A stretch of DNA of 64,000 bases, taken from assembly GCA_964543245.1 (NCBI GenBank), contig CAZIXP010000001.1, positions 49,882 through 113,881 of the forward strand, read 5' to 3'. The stretch comes from an uncultured Starkeya sp. Lineage in GTDB: Bacteria > Pseudomonadota > Alphaproteobacteria > Rhizobiales > Xanthobacteraceae. The translations under genes were made by a program, and so were the position numbers. This document shows positions 1,632 through 55,924 of this stretch, in pieces. Under the pieces are notes generated by a model, which did not search any database, was not told where the DNA came from, and was given only the letters and a program-made list of their open reading frames with translations. The number at the start of each line of letters is the position of its first letter. The first letter of the stretch is position 1.

Positions 1632-2303
1632 CTAGTTTTCGACGCGTTGGGGCAACGCGGTCAACATTTTCTGGCTGGCTTCTCGCGCGGCCATGCGGTC
1701 GAACCAGGCGGCGACATTGGGGCGTTGGGGCACATTGAGCCAGGGGATTTCCCCGGTGGCGGTATTCGTTCCCATGAAGCCGTACAGCATGATGTCAGCC
1801 ATGGTTATATCGTCGCCGGCGATGAAGGTCTTGCCTTCGAGGTCCTCGTCGAACTGATTGAGACCCTGGTCGGCGAGCAGCCGGTATGAGCGCCTGGCCT
1901 CCGGCATGAGGATCCGATGGCCGCGATAGGCCTCCTCGGCCGCGTCGGTGCCACGCCACCACGTGACGAAAGGAAGAACGATCTCCAGATAGGCCCGCCG
2001 GGTCCACATATGAATCTCCGCGCGCTCTTCAGGCGTGCTCCCGAACAAGCGCCGGCCGCCTTCCGCGATCTCGTCGAAATAGCCGCAGATCGCGGTAATC
2101 TCGGTGATGATTCGCCCATTGTCCAGGCGGAGCGCGGGCACTTCTCCTCGGGCGTTGACGGTGTTCCGATAAGCCGGCTTCCGGTTATCGAGGCCGGCGA
2201 GATCGATCAACTCCACGTCGAACCGAAGTCCCTTACGCTCGTGGACGAAGAGCCGGACAACCACCGGGTTCGGTCCCGGCTGTTTTGCGTCGTAAAAGAT
2301 CAA
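1632..2303 (-). CDS. Glutathione S-transferase family protein
   Basis: GPNP..VRLF, GEVPALRLDNG..ITEITAI, FIAGDDITMADI motifs; TTG start inferred from an AGGAG RBS. Confidence 0.85.
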   Translation of the reverse strand: MIFYDAKQPGPNPVVVRLFVHERKGLRFDVELIDLAGLDNRKPAYRNTVNARGEVPALRLDNGRIITEITAICGYFDEIAEGGRRLFGSTPEERAEIHMWTRRAYLEIVLPFVTWWRGTDAAEEAYRGHRILMPEARRSYRLLADQGLNQFDEDLEGKTFIAGDDITMADIMLYGFMGTNTATGEIPWLNVPQRPNVAAWFDRMAAREASQKMLTALPQRVEN

Positions 2304-2436
2304 GGCTTTGCTCCTGAACTGCTGATACCTCGGCCAAGGCGGCAACGGCTGCGCCGGCGGAGAACACAGAAAGGATAGCCTCGCGCCATCGGACCCACTA
2401 CAACTGGAAGTCCGATTAACATTGGCGCAAGTCCGA

Positions 2437-3333
2437 ATGACCGATCCGCTTGCCGAAGTTGTCAGGCTGCTCCAGCCGGACACCTCCTTTTCCAAGCTCG
2501 TCGTCGCAGCGGGAGTTTGGGCGGTGCGTCGTTTGGATGATGGGCTTCCATTCTACTTCGCGGTCCTGGACGGTTCATGCAGCCTATCGATTGCCGGCCG
2601 AGAGCCGATCACTCTCAACGCTGGCGATTTCGTCCTCGTGCCTGCGGCCTATGATTTCGTCACCTCCAGCGTTGAGCCTCCGCCACCTTGGCTCGAGCCG
2701 GAGATCGTGGAGATGAGCCCGGGCGTATACCGGCTCGGCTGCCCCGACGATCCGCCGGACGTCCGCATGCTCGTAGGGCATTGCATCTTCGGCTCGGACA
2801 ATGCCAACCTGCTCGTGTCGCTCCTGCCCCGGCTCGTCCACGTTCGTGGAGAGAGCCGGCTCATGACGCTGGTCGGACTCGTGAACGAGGAGACACGGGC
2901 AAGCCGGCCCGGCCGCGACGTCGTATTGGCCCGCCTGCTGGAGGTTCTGCTGATCGAGGCTCTACGCTCGACTTCAGGACCGGCGTCTCCGCCCGGCCTG
3001 TTGCGCGGACTTTGCGACGGTCGGCTTGCCGCGGCGCTGCGGGAGATGCACGAACGCCCGGACAAGGGTTGGACGGTCATGGATCTCGCGAAGGTGGCCG
3101 CGCTTTCACGCTCGACATTCTTCGACCGGTTCCGGCGCGAAGTCGGCGTTGCGCCGATGGAATACCTCCTGGGCTGGCGCATGGCCCTGGCCAAGGACCT
3201 GCTGCGGCGGGAAAGAGTCAGCGTGGCCCAAGTGGCCGAACGCGTGGGTTACAGCTCGGCAAGCACGTTCAGCGTCGCGTTCTCGCGCCACGTTGGGACG
3301 CCGCCAGCGTACTACGCGCGGGCAGCCTCGTAG
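2437..3333 (+). CDS. AraC family regulator with cupin_6 domain, divergent from GST
   Basis: MTDPLAEVVRLL start; C-terminal double HTH (LSRSTFFDRFRREVGVAPMEY ... VGYSSASTFSVAF). Confidence 0.9.
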   Translation: MTDPLAEVVRLLQPDTSFSKLVVAAGVWAVRRLDDGLPFYFAVLDGSCSLSIAGREPITLNAGDFVLVPAAYDFVTSSVEPPPPWLEPEIVEMSPGVYRLGCPDDPPDVRMLVGHCIFGSDNANLLVSLLPRLVHVRGESRLMTLVGLVNEETRASRPGRDVVLARLLEVLLIEALRSTSGPASPPGLLRGLCDGRLAAALREMHERPDKGWTVMDLAKVAALSRSTFFDRFRREVGVAPMEYLLGWRMALAKDLLRRERVSVAQVAERVGYSSASTFSVAFSRHVGTPPAYYARAAS

Positions 3334-3778
3334 TTTTGCGGGTCTTCCGTCAATGGAAAGACGGGCCTTCAGCATATAATCAGCGATTCTACGGTACGGC
3401 GCTCCACGTGATAGGACACGCGAGACCCTGTCCCTGGCTCAACCGCCTAGAACCCAGATACCTAAGGGGGTTATTTGTAAGCTTGTTCGGTAATCGGCGG
3501 CCAAGCGCGGGCCACGAACATAGGAACTGATCACTACAACGGTGTGCCTTGGCATCAATAGGATCGGTCGTAGAAGAACCCATCCTGCATGCCCCATCGC
3601 ACTTCCAGTCCGTAGAGTCCGGCTGTAATCTTGTTACCGTCGCGCAATGCCGGCAGCCAAGGGTAGTCGAGCATTCGCCATGGCGTAGCTCTCCCGGGCA
3701 AAGGTCGGACGTGTGCTCCACCGCGCATGCCGATTTTCCTGTTGACCGATACCTTCAAATTATCGTAGGTTCGCAGTA

Positions 3779-54748: not shown

Positions 54749-54911
54749 GCGCGGTTAGAGTGCCGCTTCGTGGGCGGCTTGCGAATGGAGCTTCGTCGCC
54801 GACAAGATGCGAGATACTCGGTTCCAATCTTCGCGAAGATCGCCAGCCGGCGTACCCAGGACGAGCAGCTGAGCCCGCAAGCTTAAGAGCCGGTCAAGGA
54901 TCGATGATCCG

Positions 54912-55307
54912 TCAACGCAGTCGTGCGAAGTTGGCGGCGCCCTCGATCACGTGCTCTCGTTTCTGACTCGCTTCCGGCCGCGTCATCTTGAGAAGCATTT
55001 GTTCAGGATTGCCGGCGCCGAATACCGCCTCGATGCTGCGCACGCACAAAACAACGGGTTCGCCGGCAAGGCTGTAATAGACCTGCTTGGCCTGACGACG
55101 CGTCGTGACCAGCTCAGCCTTGCGGAGCTCGGCGAGCTGCTGGCTGAGCGCTGGCTGCCCGATGCCGGTTGCCACGTCCATTTCCGTCACCGACTTTTCC
55201 CCTTCGAGGAGAAGGGAAAGGATCATCAACCGTTGCGATTGCGCGAACTTGCGCAGCTTGTCGGCCGCGGCCTCGGCTTGCGCCCGGGACTGCCATAGCG
55301 CCTTCAT
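54912..55307 (-). CDS. ArsR family regulator (third copy, lacks the BigR cysteine pair)
   Basis: RLMILSLLLEGEKSV, QPALSQQLAELR; start overlaps the prx stop. Confidence 0.85.
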   Translation of the reverse strand: MKALWQSRAQAEAAADKLRKFAQSQRLMILSLLLEGEKSVTEMDVATGIGQPALSQQLAELRKAELVTTRRQAKQVYYSLAGEPVVLCVRSIEAVFGAGNPEQMLLKMTRPEASQKREHVIEGAANFARLR

Positions 55308-55924
55308 CCATCTCTCCGGCAGAACCAGTCGGACTCGTGCTGCGCCTTTTCTTCGGCCGGCAGGAGAAGCGGCTGCCCCGGCTGCCAATCAGCCGGAGCA
55401 AGCTTCTCGCCGGAATGGGTGGCCTGCAGCGCCGCCACCATCCGCAGCATTTCGTCGACCGAACGTCCGATGGTCAGCGGATAGTGCGTGATCGCCCGGA
55501 TGACGCCCTCCGGGTCGATGAAGTAACTCGCCCGAACTCCCGCGCTGTTCTCCGCCGTCTCGTCGATCATACCGTAGGTGCGACCGACGAGCATGGACGG
55601 GTCCTCGATCACCGGAAACGGGATTTCCACCGAAAAGAGCTCACGAATGGAGCGGGCCCAGGCGACATGCGCATAGAGGCTGTCGACCGACAGACCGAGA
55701 AGTGCGCAATCGAGCGCAGCGAAACGATCGTGCGCTTTGGCGAGCGCCACGAACTCTGTGGTGCAGACCGGCGTGAAGTCCGCCGGGTGCGCAAAGAACA
55801 GCAGCCACCGGCCCTTGTAGTCGGAAAGCCGGATCGGACCTTGGGTGGAACGGGCCTCGAAATCAGGAGCGGCGTCGCCCATACGCAGGGTCCGGGGAGG
55901 TATGCGGATCGATACGTCGTTCAT
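55304..55924 (-). CDS. Peroxiredoxin (Prx6-type, second copy)
   Basis: HPADFTPVCTTEF, VRASYFIDP and DWFC. Confidence 0.92.
   Translation of the reverse strand: MNDVSIRIPPRTLRMGDAAPDFEARSTQGPIRLSDYKGRWLLFFAHPADFTPVCTTEFVALAKAHDRFAALDCALLGLSVDSLYAHVAWARSIRELFSVEIPFPVIEDPSMLVGRTYGMIDETAENSAGVRASYFIDPEGVIRAITHYPLTIGRSVDEMLRMVAALQATHSGEKLAPADWQPGQPLLLPAEEKAQHESDWFCRRDG

Follow-up and report, generated by a model that had tools for sequence, protein, structure and literature searches.

A 64,000-nt stretch from an uncultured Starkeya sp. (hereafter the window) opens at the end of a conjugation operon and runs through a long series of sulfur, thiol and respiratory genes up to a tRNA-Gly gene, which raises the question of what this DNA is and what its genes may be used for. 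A first inspection, referred to here as the sequence-only reading, had described it as a conjugative element with a near-complete sulfide-to-tetrathionate toolkit, obtained by horizontal transfer as a package for sulfidic or microoxic niches. The present analysis makes it reasonably likely that positions 1567-56237 form the accessory arm of an integrative conjugative element (ICE) of the Trb/MPF_T type, which abuts the 3' end of tRNA-Gly(GCC), has grown by accretion and would serve sulfur metabolism and respiration at low oxygen; the identity of the stretch as ICE cargo is very probable, and its ability to excise is unproven. The element portion examined was 1-56237, the right flank lying beyond the tRNA-Gly. 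Gene calls came from a codon-usage model that had been trained on the window itself, and each called gene was checked against Pfam, NCBIfam and PDB sequences; the tRNA was located with ARAGORN, backed by Rfam. The comparisons included 80 related Trb loci and runs from two unrelated metagenome studies, one of wastewater (P1) and one of bioreactor sludge (P2). Every item of the gene list in the sequence-only reading was recovered between trbI and the tRNA-Gly (Pfam, NCBIfam, PDB), and no sox genes occur among the called genes, as it had noted. A search of the literature library used here found no paper on ICE-borne sulfide:quinone oxidoreductase (SQR) or persulfide dioxygenase (PDO), and none on DUF2274.

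The left border is given by the end of a trb operon. The window begins in the 3' end of trbG (1 to ~152, + strand), followed by trbI (149-1348, +; Pfam TrbI 2e-64) and a DUF2274 gene (1345-1566, +; Pfam DUF2274 6e-34), the last two being intact open reading frames (ORFs); in a metagenome copy of the locus (L001), trbF and trbG (CagX) are found upstream of trbI. The operon end that marks a Trb/MPF_T ICE, trbG-trbI-DUF2274, is present here. Up to position 1385, inside DUF2274, the window shares 97-98% identity with a JGI metagenome contig (L092); the upstream part of this contig encodes TraG (C-terminal part), TrbB, TrbE, TrbL, TrbF and TrbG, and past the break it carries a truncated DUF2274 gene and then a complete DUF2274 gene of a different lineage (11197-11700 of that contig), a doubling that has the look of a recombination scar where backbone and cargo meet. 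The Haematobacter plasmid pOT1-2 has the scaffold repA-parA-DUF2840-S26 peptidase-DUF736-transglycosylase-relaxase-traG-copG-trbBCDEJKLFGI-DUF2274, after which an unrelated cargo (BREX) begins; no integrase is listed on either side of this backbone in the plasmid gene table, which is incomplete. Because L092 diverges in DUF2274 and the pOT1-2 cargo starts after it, this gene is considered the border between backbone and cargo, and the comparison supports the region past it as a variable cargo site of the element family. The L092 and pOT1-2 backbones also contain DUF2285/DUF6499 genes, which we take to resemble FseA of ICEMlSymR7A.

ICEs of the Tn4371 family share the scaffold repA-parA ... traG-trbBCDEJLFGI, with hotspots for adaptive genes, and in Tn4371-type elements the integrase lies at the end distant from trbI (PMC2789088). 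The backbone of L092 and pOT1-2 matches this scaffold, and gene content places the window element in the Tn4371/ICEMlSymR7A-like MPF_T group, with a backbone that would be of the alphaproteobacterial type repA-parA-traF-relaxase-traG-trbBCDEJLFGI-DUF2274. The differences concern the ends: Tn4371 uses an 8-bp TTTTYRT site and a tyrosine integrase far from trbI, whereas in the window element the trbI end faces a tRNA-Gly; unlike Tn4371, this end carries 55 kb of cargo, and in some relatives of the element a serine recombinase placed directly at a tRNA gene is used instead.

At the right border, the tRNA-Gly(GCC) gene (56238-56312, - strand), the sole Rfam match in the window, is oriented with its 3' end towards the island and is presumed to be the attachment site. 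The G+C content is 0.644 over 1567-56237 versus 0.708 to the right of the tRNA, where the flank carries genes of ordinary metabolism (N-carbamoylputrescine amidase, agmatine deiminase and an HpaB cluster). Similarity to Tianweitania ends at 56004, and the element-specific terminal segment that follows (56005-56237) is found unchanged in the contigs of P1 and P2, the agreement reaching into the tRNA. This segment contains a perfect tandem 11-bp repeat (GGTGTTGACCA twice, 56150-56171), 67-88 nt from the tRNA 3' end, which has a single other match in the window, with one mismatch; a strong minus-strand terminator-like hairpin (56185-56210) stands between the repeat and the tRNA. Repeat and hairpin could be binding sites of a recombinase or of a recombination directionality factor, or the tRNA's own terminator. 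The island contigs of both studies end inside the tRNA (56251, 56267, 56271 and 56294, varying by sample); these ends were judged to reflect tRNA repeats in the metagenomes and not att borders.

The island occurs in at least two genomic backgrounds. The P1 runs contain the trb end together with the junction and the right flank, and in the P2 runs the trb end is covered at 1.00 of the sampled words, the junction at 0.49 (its island half only) and 58600-64000 not at all, so that P2 has the island without the 7.7-kb right flank. A 28.9-kb P2 contig shows no differences from the window over 54800-56236 and stops ~35 nt into the tRNA, and P2 contigs show none over 8700-12100, a region that includes an IS110-family insertion in an SQR gene. 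The junctions of this insertion are continuous in the four runs examined (X1, X3, X5 and X7, from the two studies), in none of which a contig connects the two halves of SQR; the insertion has become fixed in both populations, and since its junctions occur in all four runs, the spread of the island postdates it. Thus, the island has clearly moved between hosts, and the horizontal transfer proposed by the sequence-only reading holds as far as two backgrounds without differences where compared can tell, autonomous excision and transfer being still a matter of inference.

How the cargo was assembled can be followed at the junction between DUF2274 and its usual neighbour. In 54 of the 80 related loci, the next gene after DUF2274 is a LysR gene, in convergent orientation and within ~0.1 kb; its homologue in the window (77% to that of the related locus L102, JAESFZ010000026.1) is found at 34051-35031 (-). 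Because the L102 alignment leaves ~0.1 kb there, positions 11386-11512 of that contig corresponding to 1555-34095 of the window, ~32.5 kb (1567-34050) have accreted between the two genes. The LysR gene opens a backbone-proximal block, in which it is followed by a histidine kinase (35176-36582, -) and a response regulator (36579-37244, -), and then by a DsbA-like gene (37380-38018), an SQR remnant (38032-38409, -) and a DUF442 gene (38492-38935) that represents a truncated blh, with homology continuing to 39131. In a second related locus (L160, JAESFO010000055.1; TrbI 78%) the same series is DUF2274, LysR, histidine kinase, response regulator, DsbA, an intact SQR, a fused Blh and YeeE/DUF6691. 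The window retains the block (78% nucleotide identity) apart from two changes, namely an internal deletion of ~0.75 kb in SQR and the interruption of blh at 39131, where a Dsb set starts; the L160 arrangement is probably the ancestral state of the cargo. The element would then have started from an ancestral LysR-HK-RR-DsbA-SQR-Blh-YeeE cargo, kept intact in L160; SQR would have been lost by internal deletion and blh truncated where a Dsb/TsdA/C-family-oxidase module begins; finally, 32.5 kb would have entered between DUF2274 and the LysR gene, bringing a Chelatococcus-like bigR-blh-yeeE-sulP-gbsR-cydDCABX block, an OxyR-PDO-peroxiredoxin-OsmC group and a GST/AraC pair, the Chelatococcus-like block being itself split by a junk-rich 13.9-kb insert with the IS110-interrupted SQR. 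The clustering of the genes exceeds chance, as sub-blocks are found in the same order on other replicons, and the modules are found apart from one another in Chelatococcus, Paracoccus, Tianweitania, Indioceanicola and Roseibium.

The accreted part begins with a GST gene (1632-2345, -) and an AraC/cupin regulator (2437-3333, +), both recognised by Pfam, and continues with a BigR/Blh-type persulfide module (3779-8816, +). The latter consists of a BigR-like ArsR gene (3779-4165), DUF2892 (4278-4484), a DUF442 sulfurtransferase (4481-4909), a PDO of the metallo-beta-lactamase fold (4958-5839), a BigR/SqrR-like ArsR gene (5844-6185), a YeeE-like half protein (6189-6620), DUF6691 (6620-7063) and SulP (7086-8816), all on the + strand. 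After the interruption described below, it is followed by a GbsR/MarR regulator (22762-23334) and by CydD (23487-25118), CydC (25115-26806), CydA (26887-28464), CydB (28461-29627) and CydX (29645-29791; starting MWYFAWLLG..., under the 60-aa ORF threshold), again all on the + strand; the cytochrome bd set is complete, with CydA and CydB at 3e-176 and 7e-110 in Pfam, CydX and the ABC pair CydDC. Window positions 3754-8785 and 22686-29740 are collinear with one continuous block of Chelatococcus pCO-6, arsR-DUF2892-blh-arsR-yeeE-DUF6691-sulP-gbsR-cydDCABX, at 78-79% nucleotide identity (79% for gbsR-cydDCABX).

The bigR operon of Xylella and Agrobacterium encodes BigR, Blh (a DUF442-ETHE1 fusion) and a sulfite exporter, and the Xylella Blh domains are active in vitro when purified separately (PMC5823870). 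The window module resembles it in having a two-cysteine BigR-like repressor, DUF442 and then ETHE1-like domains, and sulfur-anion transport genes downstream. Aligned to 3pqj, the product of g09 keeps both BigR cysteines (the Cys42/Cys108 pair), and that of g05 has two cysteines at matching positions; the NCBIfam BigR scores are 84 and 101 bits, under the 155-bit cut-off. The module differs from the bigR operon in three respects: it has two ArsR genes and YeeE/DUF6691 plus SulP instead of TauE; it is joined to gbsR-cydDCABX, as in Chelatococcus; and its blh is split into two ORFs. Blh of pCO-6 is a single protein of 449 aa, to which the window copy is 78% identical; here an in-frame TAG (4907-4909) in the interdomain linker leaves a DUF442 ORF and a PDO ORF with its own ATG, which score 139 and 588 bits against the NCBIfam Blh cut-off of 625 bits. 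The same split is found in the metagenome copy L001, and it need not mean a loss of function, because the separate Blh domains are active (PMC5823870).

The breakpoints against pCO-6 delimit a mosaic insert of 13.9 kb (8786-22685), and it is here that the SQR genes require attention. The first SQR copy is represented by an N-terminal fragment (9080-9301) and a remainder (~10770-11864), separated by the IS110-family element (~9302-10769; transposase 9553-10716, -), which is inserted cleanly at codon ~74, between ...HHFQPGLY and FTLVGAGLW..., in a gene that is otherwise open. DUF5368 (11861-12244), fragments of DUF2306 and ABC-2 genes (12327-12997), a P-type ATPase (12978-15830, -) and a P1B-like ATPase (16516-18330, -) follow, the two ATPase genes being separated by a baeRF12/host-attachment protein gene (15997-16401, -). 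Next comes a chimeric pseudogene (18744-19571, -) joining an ATPase N-terminus, 66% to a Chelatococcus ATPase, to a 3' fragment of an SQR, which lies in the 3' part of 18744-19307, the SQR fragment forming with 11544-11706 of the IS-split copy an inverted repeat of 163 nt and 79% complementarity. The insert ends with genes for an acetyl-CoA hydrolase/transferase (19741-21282, -), a short-chain dehydrogenase/reductase (21454-22233, -) and DUF2798 (22263-22598, -).

The sequence-only reading had noted a broken SQR, which is confirmed in the IS110-split copy, and two more are added by the internally deleted copy at 38032-38409 and the 3' fragment in the chimera; to judge from their structure, all three copies are dead. 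Heterotrophs oxidize sulfide by an SQR-PDO-rhodanese pathway (Xia et al. 2017, PMC5702731). The window has the PDOs and the sulfurtransferases of such a pathway, and SQR genes were once present in both modules, whereas an intact SQR is lacking; sulfide oxidation must come from the host, because the element has no intact SQR. The toolkit claimed by the sequence-only reading is thus retained for the PDOs, the DUF442 proteins, the TsdAs, the bd oxidase and the C-family oxidase, and not for the SQR entry step. Since every SQR is dead and the IS insertion is fixed, niche packages of this kind appear to decay while they spread.

Between the Chelatococcus-like block and the LysR gene are encoded an OxyR-like LysR regulator (29935-30915, -), a second PDO (30952-31854), a 1-Cys peroxiredoxin (~32030-32653) and OsmC (32927-33364). 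A minus-strand ORF of 712 aa (29935-32073) was rejected as a single gene, its 3' third being the LysR gene and the rest a shadow of the second PDO and the peroxiredoxin. The paralogue pairs of the stretch have identities of 52% (PDOs), 53% (peroxiredoxins), 38% (DUF442), 34% (TsdA) and 57% (YkuD); because these are just 34-57%, the pairs look separately acquired rather than recent duplicates.

Beyond the truncated blh, a set for periplasmic thiol redox (Dsb) and the cell wall (39214-45655) includes DsbC/G-like (39214-40029), DsbD (40178-41995; NCBIfam 510 bits versus a cut-off of 330), TlpA-like (41992-42795), a first YkuD L,D-transpeptidase (43071-43514), a TehB-like methyltransferase (43584-44240), a second YkuD (44295-44909, -) and a Trx-like protein (45128-45655); Paracoccus versutus pBEN and Tianweitania have these genes in the same order. 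It leads to two adjoining groups of genes for thiosulfate/tetrathionate chemistry. The first is formed by an alcohol dehydrogenase (ADH)-type trihaem cytochrome c (45747-47099, +; PDB 8gy2_B, 4e-118) and TsdA1 (47096-48007, +; PDB TsdA 4wq7, 1e-47), the stop codon of the former overlapping the start codon of the latter. The second is a five-gene cassette of CcoN-like (48126-49700, +; PDB 3mk7_A, 4e-67), CcoO-like (49697-50317, +; FixO domain, CVYCH motif), a membrane-anchored monohaem cytochrome c fused to a dihaem TsdB-like domain (50314-51561, +; TsdB part of 5lo9, 6e-29), TsdA2 (51558-52592, +; 5lo9 1e-84, 4wq7 3e-49) and a P1B ATPase with an HMA domain (52598-54748, +). The TsdB-like dihaem domain also matches cytochromes c4.

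Alignment to 4wq7 and 5lo9 locates in TsdA1 (g47) the motifs C93xxCH and C200xxCH, Cys136 (GCFQRS) and Met249, and in TsdA2 (g51) C106xxCH and C220xxCH, Cys149 (GCFTFS) and Met270; by these conserved Cys and Met haem ligands, both are predicted to be bona fide TsdAs (mechanism in PMC4423706). As in TsdA of Allochromatium vinosum (4wq7) and TsdBA of Marichromatium purpuratum (5lo9), the active-site haem would be Cys-ligated and haem 2 would have Met, and as in TsdBA, a TsdB-like dihaem unit is encoded directly upstream of TsdA2; unlike in these enzymes, TsdB is fused to the membrane cytochrome c of an oxidase, being neither joined to TsdA nor free-standing, and a second TsdA, 34% identical, is paired with the trihaem cytochrome. 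CcoN keeps the haem b, haem b3 and CuB histidines and the helix-7 cross-link tyrosine when aligned to 3mk7_A, and like CcoNOQP the cassette has a monohaem CcoO and a linked CcoI-like P1B ATPase; unlike CcoNOQP, no dihaem CcoP or CcoQ was seen, and the third subunit is the monohaem c fused to TsdB. The NCBIfam scores are 275 bits versus a cut-off of 583 for ccoN and 104 versus 201 for ccoO, so that cbb3-like is the right wording; from these features, the oxidase is predicted to work like a cbb3 enzyme and to form a divergent subfamily.

Downstream of the homologous oxidase genes, Azoarcus and Ralstonia have only a monohaem cytochrome of ~195 aa and SCO; because this third subunit is monohaem alone, the TsdB domain of the window is an addition to the oxidase's own third subunit. 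The fusion is rare: of 1.84 billion representatives, 2-3 clusters contain both halves. Paracoccus versutus pBEN (55-77% aa identity), Tianweitania (75-90%), Indioceanicola and Roseibium also have the five genes of the cassette, the Roseibium contig being plasmid-like (RepA, ParA, TraG, MobA); the fused third gene encodes 414-417 aa in Paracoccus, Tianweitania and Roseibium, and in Indioceanicola its halves match as two separate stretches. TsdB has been proposed as a donor to cbb3 oxidases, according to a passage of PMC9237845 that cites Kurth et al. 2016, and in Paracoccus the knock-out of a tsdA located after a tsdB-like gene abolished tetrathionate formation (bioRxiv 10.1101/683490).

The organization ccoN-ccoO-(c-TsdB)-tsdA-P1B ATPase suggests a dedicated thiosulfate:O2 chain, in which TsdA2 would pass electrons to the TsdB domain fused to the oxidase cytochrome c and from there to the CcoNO-type oxidase, with formation of tetrathionate, while the P1B ATPase would supply copper to the oxidase. 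ADH-type trihaem cytochromes have known relatives that communicate with the quinone pool, and the thiosulfate/tetrathionate couple is too positive for ubiquinone reduction. For TsdA1 and its trihaem cytochrome, the redox potentials make the reverse reaction, from quinol to tetrathionate, appear more likely. We tentatively propose, as a serious possibility, that the cassette is a self-contained thiosulfate:oxygen oxidoreductase, with the acceptor of TsdA built into the terminal oxidase, which would have been spread by ICEs and plasmids in Alphaproteobacteria together with a quinone-wired second TsdA for the reverse reaction. If this is true, tetrathionate-forming thiosulfate oxidation would be directly energy-conserving at low oxygen. 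The oxidase-TsdB fusion gives the proposal that TsdB feeds cbb3-type oxidases a genomic support that it previously did not have. ICEs with adaptive cargo are already a known kind; the fusion cassette is the most interesting part of the stretch, and it is small enough for direct testing.

In the remaining cargo, the BigR/SqrR-type repressors would sense persulfides, the DUF442 sulfurtransferases and the two PDOs would convert persulfide sulfur to sulfite or thiosulfate, YeeE/DUF6691 and SulP would move sulfur anions, and cytochrome bd would provide sulfide-insensitive respiration, bd oxidase being resistant to sulfide (PMC4815019). In this form, the stretch illustrates how a Trb-type element may build up a large set of niche genes for habitats that are sulfidic and poor in oxygen, wastewater and bioreactor sludge among them.

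A number of observations weigh against an ICE accessory arm with these roles, some on the side of function and others on that of mobility. As to function, the pathway cannot be called near-complete, a term that overstated the case since every SQR copy is inactivated; CcoN and CcoO lie under the equivalog cut-offs, and the substrate assigned to the oxidase, O2 or another oxidant, is a prediction; furthermore, the redox couple leaves the working direction of TsdA1 ambiguous. A different theme would be that the cargo serves against general envelope, oxidative and copper stress and not against sulfide, the TsdA/oxidase cassette being an add-on for thiosulfate use. The DsbD/TlpA/DsbG set (Scs-like), the two YkuD proteins, the two peroxiredoxins, OsmC, the OxyR-like regulator and GST would all fit this theme, as would three intact P-type ATPases with fragments of a fourth, the death of all SQR copies and the vicinity of the related Azoarcus oxidase to MsrAB and SCO. 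It leaves unexplained the two BigR/SqrR-type sensors with their persulfide-sensing cysteine pair, the two PDOs, two DUF442 proteins, YeeE/DUF6691 and two TsdAs, and the linkage of oxidase-TsdBA with PDO/ArsR/YeeE also in Indioceanicola and L160; we regard it as somewhat unlikely. Of the sulfidic/microoxic package claimed at first, the BigR/SqrR-type sensors, Blh-type enzymes, TsdAs, bd oxidase and C-family oxidase remain in favour, with the reserve that much of the cargo fits general stress equally.

As to mobility, no integrase, excisionase or recombinase domain was found by Pfam in the called genes of 1-56237, the left end of the element lying outside the window, and no relaxase in the same interval; the coupling protein was seen solely as the C-terminal part of TraG in L092. 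A second copy of the 25-mer at the tRNA 3' end is absent from the window at up to 3 mismatches, and a general repeat scan of the window gave just paralogue and fragment pairs. The minus-strand terminator after the tRNA is possibly native chromosomal sequence, and the exact junction may be placed anywhere from 56005 to ~56290. An empty tRNA-Gly site was not found in the nearest genomes by a CN-hydrolase scan, in which the closest were a metagenome-assembled genome of Ancylobacter novellus (85% aa) and A. oerskovii (81%); the Ancylobacter genomes share only aguB/aguA (~78% nucleotide identity), with no further common gene order and no tRNA-Gly there. Many cargo genes are decayed, a pattern expected also of a fossil element, and the window has the ArsR-peroxiredoxin pair where a sub-branch of its relatives has a serine recombinase.

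This sub-branch deserves a closer description. Four relatives end at tRNA-Ser or tRNA-Arg, 3-9 kb past trbI and in the same orientation as the window. In L146, L145, L151 and L121, a large serine recombinase of 545 aa, with Resolvase, Recombinase and zinc-ribbon domains, extends exactly to the 3' end of tRNA-Ser; in L146 (Ga0302136_1000006) the gene occupies 12574-14208 and its ORF extends into the tRNA 3' end. The same gene is cut by contig ends in L148 and L143 (6 of the 80 loci in total), and L102 retains a 52-aa remnant (19867-20022) beside tRNA-Arg; a tblastn search with the relatives' recombinase gave no match in the window. The tRNA-adjacent serine recombinases suggest that the ICE family has swapped its integration module, and in the window lineage either the integrase lies at the far left end, as in Tn4371, or the integration module was lost. 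In the latter case the island could be the fossil, non-autonomous remains of an ICE after loss of its tRNA-proximal recombinase, now spreading only through vertical inheritance, homologous recombination or mobilisation in trans. The recombinase of the sub-branch, its remnant in L102 and its absence here, the pseudogene-rich cargo and 56 kb free of an integrase all agree with this explanation; on the other side, trbI and DUF2274 are intact ORFs, the lack of differences, where compared, between two studies with different right flanks, IS110 included, points to recent movement, and a Tn4371-type integrase sits far from trbI (PMC2789088), which here means beyond the window. A fossil island is unlikely in our judgement, and the description as a conjugative element keeps its contiguous block of lower G+C from the Trb operon to the tRNA-Gly, without an integrase or att repeat in the window to complete it. 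Finally, two tandem elements, a non-conjugative tRNA-Gly island beside an ICE ending near DUF2274, would explain why L092 backbone homology stops in DUF2274 and why the cargo modules can be found on other replicons unaccompanied by trb genes, and are very improbable given that no internal repeat of the tRNA end (25 nt, up to 3 mismatches) and no second integrase were found, that the backbone-associated LysR-HK-RR-DsbA block sits 32.5 kb inside the cargo, and that the trb and tRNA ends co-occur in P2 at similar contig depth (about 14-18x).

Regarding the other genes, the regulators of the stretch comprise three ArsR, one GbsR/MarR, one AraC, two LysR and one histidine kinase/response regulator pair. 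The third ArsR-family regulator (54912-55307, -) lacks the first BigR cysteine and is probably not a persulfide sensor of the BigR/SqrR type; it adjoins the second 1-Cys peroxiredoxin (55304-55924, -), and the same pair is found after the cassette in Tianweitania. The two YkuD genes are divergent paralogues (57% aa) around the TehB-like gene, and an inverted repeat of 63 nt with 86% complementarity links them (43413-43475 and 44367-44429). In pBEN (L090, 20232-21543), the homologous Dsb/TsdA/oxidase module is bounded by a LysR gene and by what is left of a DUF2274 gene, beside an IS110-like transposase, and this site appears to be a decayed end of a Trb element. The targeting of tRNA genes by a serine recombinase looked unusual for a family usually described with tyrosine integrases. 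Sequencing runs of human origin account for most occurrences of parts of 46000-60000 and of 56320-60300; human-associated or contaminated samples may therefore also contain the host, or its agmatine/hpa region.

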